The position numbers were made by a program, and so were the translations under genes. A stretch of DNA of 64,000 nucleotides from the NCBI GenBank assembly GCA_028822585.1, contig JAPKDL010000001.1, positions 65,407-129,406 of the forward strand. The letters are read 5' to 3'. The notes below the pieces were generated by a model. It was not told where the DNA came from. It made no database searches and saw only the letters and a list, made by a program, of their open reading frames with translations. Shown in pieces: positions 23,288 to 25,818 of the stretch (position 1 is the first letter of the stretch; each line of letters starts with the position of its first letter). The DNA is from Alphaproteobacteria bacterium. GTDB lineage: Bacteria > Pseudomonadota > Alphaproteobacteria > UBA8366 > GCA-2717185.

Positions 23288-24181
23288 CTAAGACGCGGCG
23301 GCCAGCGAATCACCGGTTTCTCTCACTGTAGGACCCGTTCCCGCGACCGTGGTACGGCGCATGACGCGCCGGTGTTTGGTGGTGTCGAAGGGAGTGCCGC
23401 GATGCAGGATGCAGCGATTGTCCCAAATGATAAAATCGAACTGTCGCCATTTATGGACATACACAAATTCGGTTTGCGTCGATTTATCCACGAGATCGCG
23501 TAAAAGCTGGCGGCCTTTTTCTTCCGGCCACCCGATAATGTGCGATGCGTGCGAGCCGCTATAGAAATTTTTTCGCCCCGTTGACGGGTTTGTTCGTACT
23601 ACCGCGTGGCGAACCGGGGGTACTTCCTTCAAGGCTTGTTTGGGTGCTTTATAGCCTTTCACTAGGGCGCGCGAATGCCCGTAATTATGTTCCGCGACCA
23701 ATCCATCCAATTGGAGTCGTTCTGCTGCCGGAAGTAAGTCATAGGCGGTTCGGCAGGAGGCGAATTGCGTATCAGCGCCAATGGGTGGCACTTCGCGCCC
23801 GGACAGCATGGAACAATAGGCGGGCGTTGGCTTGAACGAACTGTCGGTATGCCACATTTCATTGCCGCTATTCGACTTCAGGCGTGTATGACCTTTCGGA
23901 AAAATTTCATTCGTACGGTAATCGATGTTGGTGATGTTCGCCACTGGGACGCCGCCATCGCCTTCGGGTTTGTAAACTGTTGTTTCCAAGGTGCCGAAAC
24001 GGGCGCTAAACGCCGTTTGCGTTTCGTCGTCGAAACGTTGGTTGCGGAACACCAGGACCGAATACTTGTCCAGCGCAGCCTTAATTTCAGACACCACTGT
24101 GTCATCGACATTTGCTATCAGGTTGAGGCTGGTAATTTCAGCCCCAAAATAATCTGTTAGATTTTGAATGGTCAACGCCAT
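23288..24181 (-). CDS. TauD/TfdA family Fe(II)/2-oxoglutarate-dependent dioxygenase (paralogue 1)
   Basis: WHTDSSF (HxD iron ligands) and the C-terminal WDNRCILHRG. The start was trimmed to ATG 24181 (MALTIQNLTDYFGAEI). Confidence 0.85.
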   Translation of the reverse strand: MALTIQNLTDYFGAEITSLNLIANVDDTVVSEIKAALDKYSVLVFRNQRFDDETQTAFSARFGTLETTVYKPEGDGGVPVANITNIDYRTNEIFPKGHTRLKSNSGNEMWHTDSSFKPTPAYCSMLSGREVPPIGADTQFASCRTAYDLLPAAERLQLDGLVAEHNYGHSRALVKGYKAPKQALKEVPPVRHAVVRTNPSTGRKNFYSGSHASHIIGWPEEKGRQLLRDLVDKSTQTEFVYVHKWRQFDFIIWDNRCILHRGTPFDTTKHRRVMRRTTVAGTGPTVRETGDSLAAAS

Positions 24182-24262
24182 GGCTGCGTCTCCTCTCGAT
24201 TCCGTTCCAGATGTGGGAATTGAAGCAGGCGACGGTGCTTGATGCAAGCCAGAGTACCTAGT

Positions 24263-24308
24263 GGTTTGATTGAAAGGCTTGGTGTCCAAGAATTTTGTGA
24301 ATCAAACC
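24263..24308. promoter_or_regulatory. 9 bp inverted repeat GGTTTGATT-N28-AATCAAACC in a divergent control region
   Basis: Read directly from the sequence. It lies between the divergently oriented TauD gene (start 24181) and the Prx-like gene (start 24472). Confidence 0.3.
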
Positions 24309-24340
24309 ATTAACCTATTGATTTGGGGAGCGACTGATCA

Positions 24341-24363
24341 AAACGGATGGGCACCATCCGTTT
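24341..24363. promoter_or_regulatory. Perfect 10 bp stem / 3 nt loop hairpin or palindrome AAACGGATGG-GCA-CCATCCGTTT
   Basis: Read directly from the sequence, about 110 nt upstream of the Prx-like ATG. It could be an operator palindrome or a 5' leader structure. Confidence 0.3.
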
Positions 24364-24471
24364 CGGTATTGCCACTCGATCAAGCCATCGTTGCGAAGGT
24401 GGGATCAACGGGCCATACTGCCCTTCATCGTCGCCATGGCATTCAGCGCAAACCTCACAAGGAAATTTTAA

Positions 24472-24942
24472 ATGTCCCCAAAACTTGGAATTGAGGATGC
24501 GTTTCCCGATATTACACTCAACCTCGTCGACGGTGGGACGCTAAGTCTGCCGGTCGGGCTGGATGCAAATTATAAGGTGGTCTTGTTTTATCGGGGACAT
24601 TGGTGACCTTTCTGTCGCCGGCAGTTAGTCGGCTTCGAAAAGTTGAAAGCGGAATTTGATGCGTTGAATACGAAGATTGTCACAGCCAGTATCGATCCAC
24701 TGGATAAGGCGCAAGAAGTGGCGAACGATGTGTCGTTTCCTGTTGGTTACGGCGCGACTCGCGAAATTGGCGATGCGATAGGCGCGTTTTGGGAAGAGCG
24801 GCGAGGATTGATTCAACCGTCTGAATTCATCATCGGCGCGGATAACAAGATTGTCACCAGTAGCTACAGCGATGGCCCGCTGGCGCGGATGGATGCTGCG
24901 GATGTTATCAAACTTATCAAGCTGTACGAGTCGCGAAAATAA
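24472..24942 (+). CDS. Peroxiredoxin-like (AhpC/TSA, PRX-like2) protein with an in-frame TGA at the redox Cys position; candidate selenoprotein (UxxC)
   Basis: ATG 24472 has AAGGAA upstream. The frame reads ...YKVVLFYRGHW[TGA 24604-24606]PFCRRQLVGFEKLKAEFDALNTKIVTASIDPLDKAQEV...KLYESRK. The track ORF 24643..24942 is in the same frame (24643-24472=171). The TGA replaces the first Cys of the conserved WCP(F/Y)C motif, and no other lesion is present. Confidence 0.6.
24608..24642 (+). promoter_or_regulatory. Candidate bacterial SECIS-like stem-loop immediately 3' of the in-frame UGA
   Basis: Manual fold. Lower stem: 24608/24642, then 24609-24612 paired with 24637-24640 (A24641 bulged). 24614 pairs with 24636. 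A 2x2 internal loop follows. Upper stem: 24617-24622 paired with 24628-24633 (GCCGGC/GUCGGC, one G-U pair). The apical loop is AGUUA (24623-24627), about 20 nt from the UGA. Confidence 0.4.
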
Positions 24943-24987
24943 GGCCGGCCATAGCTGGATTAAATACGAAGCGAACGAGATTTTGGT

Positions 24988-25818
24988 ATGGAGATAACGC
25001 AACTGGCCAATGGCTTTGCGGTCGAAATTGGTGGGGTCAATTTAGCCGAGACGCTGAACGACGCTGCCTTCGATGCCATCAAGGCGTTGTGGATGGAAAA
25101 TCGCGTTGTAGTGTTTCGGCATCAAACACTTAACGATGACGGTTTGGTCGCGTTCGCCGCGCGTTTTGGGCCCCTGTTTGTCCATGCGCAATCATCGCTT
25201 CTATCGTCGCGGCGTAAAGAGGTGATGGAGCTTTCCAATCTGGAAGATGTGGAAAGACCCGTCACCCATGAACTCGACTGGCATACGGATCAGAGCTATA
25301 CGGCGCAACCGGTGTTTGGTACCATTCTTTACGGATTGGTGACGCCGGATGAAGGCGGTGAAACTCATTTCGCCGATCTCGCTGGTGCCTATGTTTCCCT
25401 GCCGGAAGAATTGCGGACGCGGATTGAGGACGCCACGGCTGTTTATTCCGCTGAACCGCGTCCAAAGGTAAGGGAGAAACCGCTTAACGCGGAAGAACGC
25501 TCCCGCATTCCCGATTGTGTTCACCCTATCGTTCGGACCCACCCTTATTTAAACCGGAAATCGATTTATCTTAGCCCGTTGCACATTCGAACCATTGGGA
25601 ATTTACCGGAACCGGACAGTCTAAGTCTGTTAGGTGAATTGATTGAACACGCTGCGCAACCGGCACATCTTTACCGGCATCGTTGGTCGGTTGGGGATGT
25701 GGTCATATGGGACAATACTTCTGTCATGCATCGCCGCACATCGTTTCCATCTCATGAACGCCGCCACCTAAAACGGACGGGGTTCTATTTGCCCGACGAA
25801 TTGGCGATACCTGTTTAA
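24988..25818 (+). CDS. TauD/TfdA family Fe(II)/2-oxoglutarate-dependent dioxygenase (paralogue 2)
   Basis: WHTDQSY (HxD) and the C-terminal WDNTSVMHRR. 276 aa. It starts 45 nt after the Prx-like stop. Confidence 0.9.
   Translation: MEITQLANGFAVEIGGVNLAETLNDAAFDAIKALWMENRVVVFRHQTLNDDGLVAFAARFGPLFVHAQSSLLSSRRKEVMELSNLEDVERPVTHELDWHTDQSYTAQPVFGTILYGLVTPDEGGETHFADLAGAYVSLPEELRTRIEDATAVYSAEPRPKVREKPLNAEERSRIPDCVHPIVRTHPYLNRKSIYLSPLHIRTIGNLPEPDSLSLLGELIEHAAQPAHLYRHRWSVGDVVIWDNTSVMHRRTSFPSHERRHLKRTGFYLPDELAIPV

Follow-up and report, generated by a model that had tools for sequence, protein, structure and literature searches.

The question raised by this locus is whether a hairpin that closely follows an in-frame UGA is a bacterial SECIS element and, if so, which part of the hairpin carries the signal. 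In the window, which is the whole stretch of 64,000 nucleotides that was analysed, the UGA lies at 24604-24606. The original prediction described an extended hairpin with a lower stem (C24608 with G24642, UUUC 24609-24612 with GAAA 24637-24640, and G24614 with C24636), a GC-rich upper stem (GCCGGC with GUCGGC, including one G.U pair) and the apical loop AGUUA at 24623-24627. All of these bases and pairs are found in the sequence where they were placed, the loop and the UGA included. The hairpin is very probably a genuine bacterial SECIS signal, an element of a well-known kind. Function resides in the 17-nt upper stem-loop and not in the extended hairpin as a whole. With a probability of about 0.9, the stem-loop at 24617-24633, which starts 10 nt after the UGA, is the bacterial SECIS of a Prx-like (AhpC/TSA, UxxC) gene. 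The claim of a SECIS-like element 3' of the UGA is upheld by the redox-cysteine site, the Sec machinery of the genome, the conservation of the TGA, its co-occurrence with selB, covariation, synonymous constraint and agreement with the bacterial SECIS (bSECIS) model.

The gene, its in-frame UGA and the Sec machinery

Two features define the coding context of the hairpin.

24472-24942, + strand: predicted Prx-like (AhpC/TSA, UxxC) selenoprotein gene; a single open frame with TGA read as U, 156 codons including Sec45
24604-24606, + strand: in-frame UGA, predicted selenocysteine codon in HW-U-PFC; TGA at the same codon in 99 orthologues

The frame ends with TAA at 24940-24942, and the neighbouring genes encode two TauD-family dioxygenases and one MFS transporter. 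In profile searches the gene product matched PF00578 (E=1.1e-19, 71 bits against a cut-off of 26) and PF08534 (Redoxin, E=4e-14). NCBIfam holds no specific model for this clade, the top match being SelL_rel_redox with 28 bits against a cut-off of 120. When the gene is translated with TGA as U, the UGA takes the first position of a U-P-F-C redox motif. It aligns with a cysteine in the Cys-type homologues P0001, P0009, P0035, P0082 and P0090. This is the catalytic cysteine of the homologues, and the Cys forms read HW-C-P[FY]-C at this site.

A Prx-like selenoprotein family with a UxxC motif is known from the Sargasso Sea and GOS metagenomes (PMC1088965; PMC2398784). The GOS data contain 225 Sec sequences of Prx-like 1 (pfam00578, UxxC; PMC2398784 Table 2), and a review of 2026 describes the Prx-like family as 'predicted with high confidence' (PMC13188914). 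The present gene shares with Prx-like 1, or 'Prx-like thiol:disulfide oxidoreductase', the AhpC/TSA domain, a thioredoxin-like UxxC motif where true Prx has TxxU, what appears to be a marine proteobacterial origin, and the existence of both Sec and Cys forms. It matches the published family by the published description rather than by reference sequences (e.g. WP_010940744.1), and the clade with HW-U-P[YF]-CRRQL may be one subfamily of the broad Prx-like group.

Orthologues with 45-92% identity were found in 19 of 60 related genomes, and the TGA occupies the same codon in 19/19. A GTDB scan, in which each species was represented by one genome, gave 251 confirmed relatives. The best 80 of the 251 are 58-92% identical, carry the TGA in 80/80 cases and belong to Alphaproteobacteria, Betaproteobacteria/Burkholderiales and one Gemmatimonadaceae MAG. 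Of the named relatives, a Rhodospirillaceae MAG (L051) has the closest orthologue, with 92% identity, and the genome of the window is therefore probably alphaproteobacterial as well. The 19 and the 80 orthologues cover the full length of the gene, and the codons on both sides of the UGA are under purifying selection across the 99 genomes.

The UGA could instead be a real stop, in a split or decaying gene or through a sequencing error, or it could encode another amino acid, with the hairpin serving in pausing or mRNA stability. The public gene calls for the family would agree with such an explanation, as they either comprise about 105 aa and start downstream of the TGA or run the full length as 'HWW' with the TGA as Trp. 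The extra stops in two orthologues (TGATGA in L028 and TAG in L029) likewise suggest occasional decay. A real stop is, however, hardly compatible with a TGA that 99 genomes keep at this codon while both halves of the gene are under selection, at the site of a catalytic cysteine, in a published selenoprotein family (PMC2398784 Table 2; PMC1088965), and in a host with a complete Sec machinery whose selB co-occurs with the gene. The probability of this explanation is negligible. From the alignments, the UGA is taken to be a selenocysteine codon within one intact selenoprotein gene and not a boundary between two fragments, and we infer that Sec is inserted there. An annotation with Sec at residue 45 is due for this gene. 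If the codon specifies selenocysteine, the public calls for the Prx-like family, truncated or with Trp at the UGA, are systematically wrong.

The source assembly comprises 3.8 Mb in 265 contigs. A profile search placed selA (585 bits) and selB (437 bits) next to each other on contig C247. The same contig carries the tRNA-Sec (70 bits), and selD (420 bits), which has an in-frame TGA of its own, is present in the same genome. All four genes, selA, selB, selC (tRNA-Sec) and selD, score above the curated cut-offs. Among the 60 related genomes, selB is present in 18 of the 19 that have the TGA gene, compared with 11 of the 41 that lack the gene. The one genome with the TGA gene in which selB was not found is G007; in its copy, the Trp codon before the UGA is TGA as well.

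Folding of the hairpin and the bSECIS model

The sequence at 24600-24650 reads UUGG-UGA-CCUUUCUGUC-GCCGGC-AGUUA-GUCGGC-UUCGAAAAGUUG, and the RNA of the 17-nt upper stem-loop, 24617-24633, is GCCGGCAGUUAGUCGGC. The parts of the hairpin are as follows.

24607-24616, + strand: spacer of 10 nt from the UGA to the conserved stem, formed by the Pro-Phe-Cys codons and the first Arg base; synonymous variation is normal
24617-24622, + strand: 5' arm of the upper stem, GCCGGC; in the RNAalifold consensus, with covariation at pairs 15-29 and 18-26
24623-24627, + strand: apical loop AGUUA, in which G24624-U24625 presumably contacts SelB; supported by loop and codon conservation
24628-24633, + strand: 3' arm of the upper stem, GUCGGC, formed by the Val53-Gly54 codons; supported by column and codon conservation
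24608-24614, + strand: 5' strand of the lower stem; present here, poorly conserved and outside the RNAalifold consensus
24636-24642, + strand: 3' strand of the lower stem; present here, not conserved, with a weak hint of constraint
24601-24620, + strand: competing hairpin GGUGACC/GGUCGCC, which includes the UGA; the minimum-free-energy (MFE) structure only for the cut 24600-24670

The upper stem has six base pairs, five of them Watson-Crick and one G.U. When the RNA is folded from the UGA onward (40 to 67 nt), the hairpin is the MFE structure and the pair probability of the upper stem is 0.98-0.99. The 43-nt fold from the UGA has an energy of -13.9 kcal/mol, and the upper stem alone -9.2. In contexts of 141 nt and 289 nt the upper stem stays in the MFE structure with a probability of 0.53-0.64, and the lower stem is displaced by other pairings.

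The fold of 24600-24670, proposed earlier as a check, went against the prediction: its MFE structure (-19.6) does not contain the hairpin, and UGG-UGA-CC pairs with G-GUC-GCC. The hairpin is absent because four upstream nucleotides allow the competing hairpin to form with the 5' arm. During decoding, the nucleotides upstream of the hairpin near the UGA are inside the ribosome. The competing hairpin is not conserved, since it needs Cys to be encoded by UGU, and the UGU and UGC codons are distributed 46/51 among the orthologues. As a functional structure it was rejected: it depends on a freely varying synonymous site, and the decoding ribosome would melt it.

The fold of the single sequence is only modestly better than chance. 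The z-score of the 43-nt fold is -1.8, and 15 of 200 dinucleotide shuffles fold equally well. When the peptide was held fixed and the codons were redrawn from the codon usage of the genome, 3% of the synonymous re-codings folded equally well. All six upper pairs arose in 8.4% of the re-codings and at least five of six in 39%; the AGUU loop was present in 20%, and the loop together with all six pairs in 1.7%. With a fold that is modestly unusual by shuffles and re-codings, the single sequence does not settle the question. These numbers bear on an explanation in which amino-acid conservation (C-R-R-Q-L-V-G-F, with GC-rich codons) produces the pairing as a by-product, the RNA structure itself having no role. 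The frequency with which re-coding restores the pairs speaks for it, as does the high conservation of the peptide. The decision between this explanation and a SECIS comes from the orthologues.

In the bSECIS consensus model of Zhang and Gladyshev, as presented in Fig. 2A of PMC13188914, the loop has 3-9 nt and the upper stem 4-16 bp, a G stands in one of the first two loop positions and is usually followed by G or U, the spacing from the UGA to the loop is 16-37 nt and the MFE is at most -7.5 kcal/mol. The hairpin at 24617-24633 agrees with the model on every point. The stem-loop follows the Sec-UGA directly within the coding region, its stem beginning at 24617. Its loop has 5 nt and its stem 6 bp, the loop reads A-G-U-U-A with G second and U next, the spacing is 16 nt (24607-24622), at the lower limit of the range, and the energies of the 43-nt fold and of the upper stem alone both fall below the threshold. 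The hairpin differs from the model in that an AGUUR loop is invariant across this family, which is stricter than the model demands. An Rfam scan of 24000-25500 gave two chance-level matches only (E of 1.2 and 8), a miss that may carry little weight.

Among known elements, a close counterpart is the SECIS of E. coli fdhF. Within its 40 nt, the minimal element is an upper stem-loop of 17 nt at a distance of 11 nt from the UGA; three bases, U17, G23 and U24, are indispensable, and the lower region contributes about 25% of the read-through (PMC8659212). The conserved upper hairpin described here also has 17 nt and a G-U in the apical loop, and in both elements the lower region is poorly conserved or dispensable. 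Several features set it apart from fdhF. The stem starts 10 nt after the UGA (11 nt in fdhF), and the G-U occupies positions 21-22, counted from the U of the UGA, where fdhF has it at 23-24. The loop reads AGUUA instead of GGUC, the two elements share no sequence similarity, and the 5' arm has no bulged U corresponding to U17.

Conservation, covariation and codon choice

The structure alignment consisted of 92 distinct 54-nt sequences of TGA orthologues aligned from the UGA, and codon usage was compared in 97 distinct CDSs; the orthologues share kinship, and the cell counts given here overstate the number of independent events. Positions are counted from the U of the UGA. The RNAalifold consensus of the first 20 sequences is exactly the upper stem, columns 14-19 and 25-30, which correspond to 24617-24622 and 24628-24633. 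All six upper pairs form in 73 of the 92 sequences and five of six in 18. The remaining sequence, L055, has three of six pairs in the standard register; by eye, moving its 3' arm by one base gives back six pairs around an AGUU loop of four bases. Among the 92 sequences, 77 have the loop AGUUG and 15 have AGUUA, so that AGUU is invariant (92/92), and column 27 is C in 91/92.

The compensatory changes that had been expected in TGA orthologues were found at two pairs. Pair 15-29 is C-G in 82 sequences, U-A in 5, G-C in 4 and broken in 1. The bases that it couples are the synonymous wobble base of Arg49 and the middle base of codon 54, a codon for Gly (GGC), Asp (GAC) or Ala (GCC). In our reading of the protein tree, G-C would have arisen at least two times (in the L030/31/36 clade and in L091) and U-A once. 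Pair 18-26 is more variable, with G.U in 32 sequences, G-C in 25, A-U in 13, U-A in 4, U.G in 3, U.U in 14 and U.C in 1. Here the partners are the wobble position of Arg50 and the middle base of codon 53 (Val, Ala, Asp or Gly). Arg50 is CGU in 4/4 sequences with Asp53 and in 3/3 with Gly53, and CGG in 25 of the 26 sequences that have C as the second base of codon 53. The U.U mismatch of 14/92 orthologues is next to the closing pair and occurs in one clade. The covariation score of 0.209 is higher than those of all 500 column shuffles and of all slid registers. The compensatory changes at 15-29 and 18-26 point firmly to selection at the RNA level.

Codon choice leads to the same region. At conserved residues the codon entropy in the 97 CDSs is normal except at codons 49-54. 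Arg49 is CGC in 88/97. Arg50 is CGG, CGA or CGU and never CGC, which is the commonest Arg codon at other Arg columns. Gln51 is CAG in 97/97, versus 72 CAG and 22 CAA at Gln115, and Leu52 is UUR in 97/97, versus at most 8% UUR and at least 90% CUN at five other Leu columns. Gly54 is GGY in 86/87. Variation is normal at codons 46-48 and 55, with entropies of 1.84, 0.93 and 1.0 bits at P46, Y/F47 and C48, and synonymous variation in the 97 CDSs gave no sign of sequence constraint in the spacer 24607-24616. The constrained codons match the upper stem and the loop, and AGUUR is invariant; the constraint therefore does not come from selection on the protein.

These results argue strongly against a mere by-product of the peptide. 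Protein selection explains neither the uniform UUR at Leu52 nor the uniform CAG at Gln51, the synonymous sites of stem and loop are frozen while the flanking codons vary freely, and amino-acid replacements at residues 53 and 54 are accompanied by matching silent changes at the Arg wobble bases.

A further control is provided by homologues that have no UGA. A phylum-wide sample of 400 genomes contained one weak Cys homologue only and was unusable as a Cys control; the control was drawn instead from database proteins, together with their contigs, and from a search with a degenerate DNA pattern. The database homologues are of four kinds, namely the calls of about 105 aa, the 'HWW' calls, true Cys forms and one CGA (Arg) form. 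The upper stem is kept in the close Cys forms L042, L043, L044 and L050 (56-67% identity) and in the CGA form L049. The pairing potential is thus not strictly limited to genes with UGA, a point that favours the by-product explanation. In a tree, however, the Cys and Arg forms that keep the stem branch from different points within the Sec clade, a placement that is strongly supported for P0009 and P0035. The loop of L042 is already AGCUA, which was never seen in the 97 Sec forms, and its stem has a U.G pair. The close forms are best read as recent, independent conversions from Sec to Cys or from Sec to Arg that would retain a fossil hairpin.

In the more diverged Cys forms P0082 and P0090 the hairpin is absent. 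The outgroup Cys homologues L137 and L139 have the same CRRQL peptide and form two to three of the six pairs; their second Arg is CGC and their Leu is CUN, and in L139 the Gln is CAA. The CRRQL peptide therefore does not impose the hairpin. Taken with the codon evidence, this makes the by-product explanation highly improbable, and a SECIS in the 17-nt stem-loop is preferred.

The original prediction had named two observations that would speak against it, an MFE structure of 24600-24670 without the hairpin and the same pairing potential in Cys homologues. Formally, both were made. The first is resolved by the competing upstream pairing and the second by the position of the close Cys forms within the Sec clade, the distant ones having only part of the pairs.

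The lower stem, decoding and wider relevance

The claim of an extended hairpin stands for the upper stem and loop, which are conserved with covariation, and falls for the lower stem. Pair 8-35 (U24611-A24638) forms in 9 of the 92 sequences, and the UUUC/GAAA helix is continuous in about 10% of the orthologues. Pairs 5-39 and 6-37 form in 35/92 and 42/92, respectively. Since conservation does not reach the lower stem, the 'extended' part is a peculiarity of this sequence.

A requirement for the lower helix, with the whole hairpin (24608-24614 with 24636-24642, plus the upper stem) as the functional SECIS, would fit the MFE structure obtained when folding starts at the UGA and the contribution of the lower region to read-through in E. 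coli (PMC8659212). It would also fit the remaining pairs of the lower stem, 7-36 (84/92), 9-34 (87/92) and 11-33 (92/92), which form in 91-100% of the orthologues. These three pairs, however, appear to be set largely by codon positions 1-2 of conserved residues or by trivially compatible wobble bases. Codons 46-48 and 55 are without synonymous constraint, the helix is outside the RNAalifold consensus, and other pairings replace it in the longer contexts. A weak hint of constraint comes from codon 56. When it encodes Ala, it is GCA in 24/30 cases, versus about 4-12% GCA at other Ala columns, and this keeps A36 opposite U7; the bias could also be due to inheritance within clades.

When the UGA is in the A site, the next 10 nt should lie inside the mRNA channel according to ribosome footprints. 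An E. coli SelB-ribosome structure mentioned in PMC10945757 is taken as support for this placement. The 5' strand, 2-10 nt after the UGA, would then be within the ribosome, and the lower stem could not exist at the moment of decoding. A required lower helix is therefore very unlikely, and the lower stem arose by chance in this sequence or, at most, adds a little stability.

The mechanism proposed for the 17-nt upper stem-loop follows the analogy of E. coli fdhF. Once the UGA has entered the A site, the mRNA channel would enclose the spacer together with the 5' strand of the lower stem and leave the upper hairpin at its entrance. SelB loaded with GTP and Sec-tRNA(Sec) would bind the G-U of the loop and the stem through its C-terminal domain. 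SelB binding to this hairpin is expected from the analogy. Selenocysteine would then reach the UGA through SelB, which would compete there with release factor 2, and the protein made would be a thiol:disulfide oxidoreductase with a U-P-F-C selenenylsulfide redox centre.

A broader proposal, which is tentative and rather doubtful, joins several of these observations. According to it, the hairpin also shapes the protein, the AGUUR loop with the 16-nt spacing represents a distinct SECIS class that belongs to the SelB of Alpha- and Betaproteobacteria, and the clade with the U.U mismatch has a functional analogue of the E. coli bulged U. Residues 53 (Val/Ala/Asp/Gly) and 54 (Gly/Asp/Ala) appear to change only jointly with the wobble bases of Arg49 and Arg50. 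If the proposal is true, the family is an unusually clean natural case of an RNA structure that dictates amino-acid substitutions, and the AGUUR class and the U.U analogue would go beyond the current bSECIS model.

The 17-nt SECIS itself leaves the picture of Sec decoding as it was, and its main value lies in the correction of annotation and in the covariation data set. As a compact example, with 17 nt, about 100 orthologues and clear covariation, it could serve to train predictors of bacterial SECIS elements and selenoproteins. It is also a candidate SECIS tag for the expression of recombinant selenoproteins, only in combination with a matching SelB.

Other genes of the same genome also combine an in-frame TGA with a downstream hairpin. 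A naive genome-wide scan for a TGA followed by a GC-rich hairpin with a GU loop in an open frame, with a minimum of 30 codons, gave 64 candidates, mainly out-of-frame noise. Two of these, on C140 and C262, were discarded as copies of a palindromic repeat and not selenoprotein genes. The convincing candidates were only the gene in the window and a GrdB/PrdB-like gene (PF07355). The scan missed selD, probably because the open frame upstream of its UGA is shorter than the 30-codon minimum. The candidate SECIS of selD (G000, contig C76) has a 6-bp GC-rich stem (AGCACC/GGUGCU) that starts 11 nt after its UGA, with as many pairs as the stem described here, and the G-U of its loop is likewise at 21-22 from the U of the UGA. 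It differs in the loop, which has 3 nt (GUC) rather than 5, and in the sequence of the stem. In the GrdB/PrdB-like gene and in three other AhpC/TSA genes that contain an in-frame TGA, the GU-containing loops lie somewhat further downstream.

Public gene calls and an Arg codon at the Sec position

The calls of the Prx-like family in public databases are systematically wrong, and the errors are of two types. Calls of the first type are cut to the portion downstream of the UGA (the matches of about 105 aa, P0037-P0120), while in those of the second type the UGA is translated as Trp, giving 'HWWPYC' (database proteins P0003, P0006, P0007, P0011 and others). One homologue carries an Arg codon at the Sec position.

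501-1181, JGI 3300081965 Ga0673031_0044029: homologue L049, with CGA (Arg) at the Sec position

This homologue is placed inside the Sec clade, that is, among the TGA-bearing orthologues of the protein tree. Its hairpin is fully intact and its product is lengthened to 226 aa. It may represent a very recent TGA-to-CGA change, by which the redox site would have been inactivated.

Hairpin variants and additional stop codons among orthologues

In the alignment of distinct orthologue sequences, columns 18/26 (window 24621/24629) form a U.U mismatch, adjoining the loop-closing pair, in 14 of the 92 sequences, which belong to at least one clade. The mismatch results from the combination of CGU for Arg50 with GUC for Val53. 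The stem may tolerate this mismatch, or the mismatch may play the part of the bulged U in the E. coli SECIS. The orthologue L055 (JBFKGW010000432.1) has Ala-Ala-Phe (GCG GCU UUC) after the Leu, and its 3' arm, read by eye, is moved by one base. As judged from the sequence in the same way, this shift would restore a stem of six pairs, of which five are Watson-Crick and one is a U.G wobble, beneath an AGUU loop of 4 nt, and the structure would be retained via a change of register.

An extra stop is present in two orthologues, L028 and L029; these may be copies in the course of decay, or else assembly variants. In L028 the Trp codon preceding the Sec codon is also TGA.

G007:C211, at about locus position 1503-1508: extra TGA of L028, reading TGATGA

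The gene selB was not found in the 92%-complete genome of L028. In L029 (G013:C36) the Gln codon of the loop, CAG, is replaced by TAG, and the closing pair of the hairpin remains as U.G.

Candidate selenoprotein genes and palindromes in the same genome

The genome carrying the Prx-like gene appears to have a sizeable selenoproteome. Its candidate members are a selD that itself contains Sec, a GrdB/PrdB-like protein with a UxxC motif (PF07355), two Prx genes of the BCP type whose peroxidatic residue is Sec, and a further TGA-bearing AhpC/TSA gene. In every candidate the UGA is followed downstream by a hairpin with GU in its loop.

Loci of the candidate Sec genes (contig, position, strand)
C76:15476-16405, plus strand
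C194, 408-aa frame, minus strand
C111:1220-1588, minus strand
C5:23353-23718, plus strand
C121:8905-9351, plus strand

The genome-wide scan for a TGA followed by a GU-loop hairpin also matched two near-identical 28-nt palindromes, ACGAAAUGCUUGGGUGCCAAGCGUUUCG and ACAAAAUGCUUGGGUACCAAGCGUUUUG, on contigs C140 (minus strand) and C262 (plus strand). Their flanks are similar, and the two matches resemble copies of an intergenic hairpin element that is repeated in the genome rather than selenoprotein genes.

Another palindromic sequence, which may serve as an operator or form a leader hairpin, is located in the intergenic region that separates the divergent TauD and Prx-like genes.

Window 24341-24363: perfect 10-bp inverted repeat, AAACGGATGG-GCA-CCATCCGTTT
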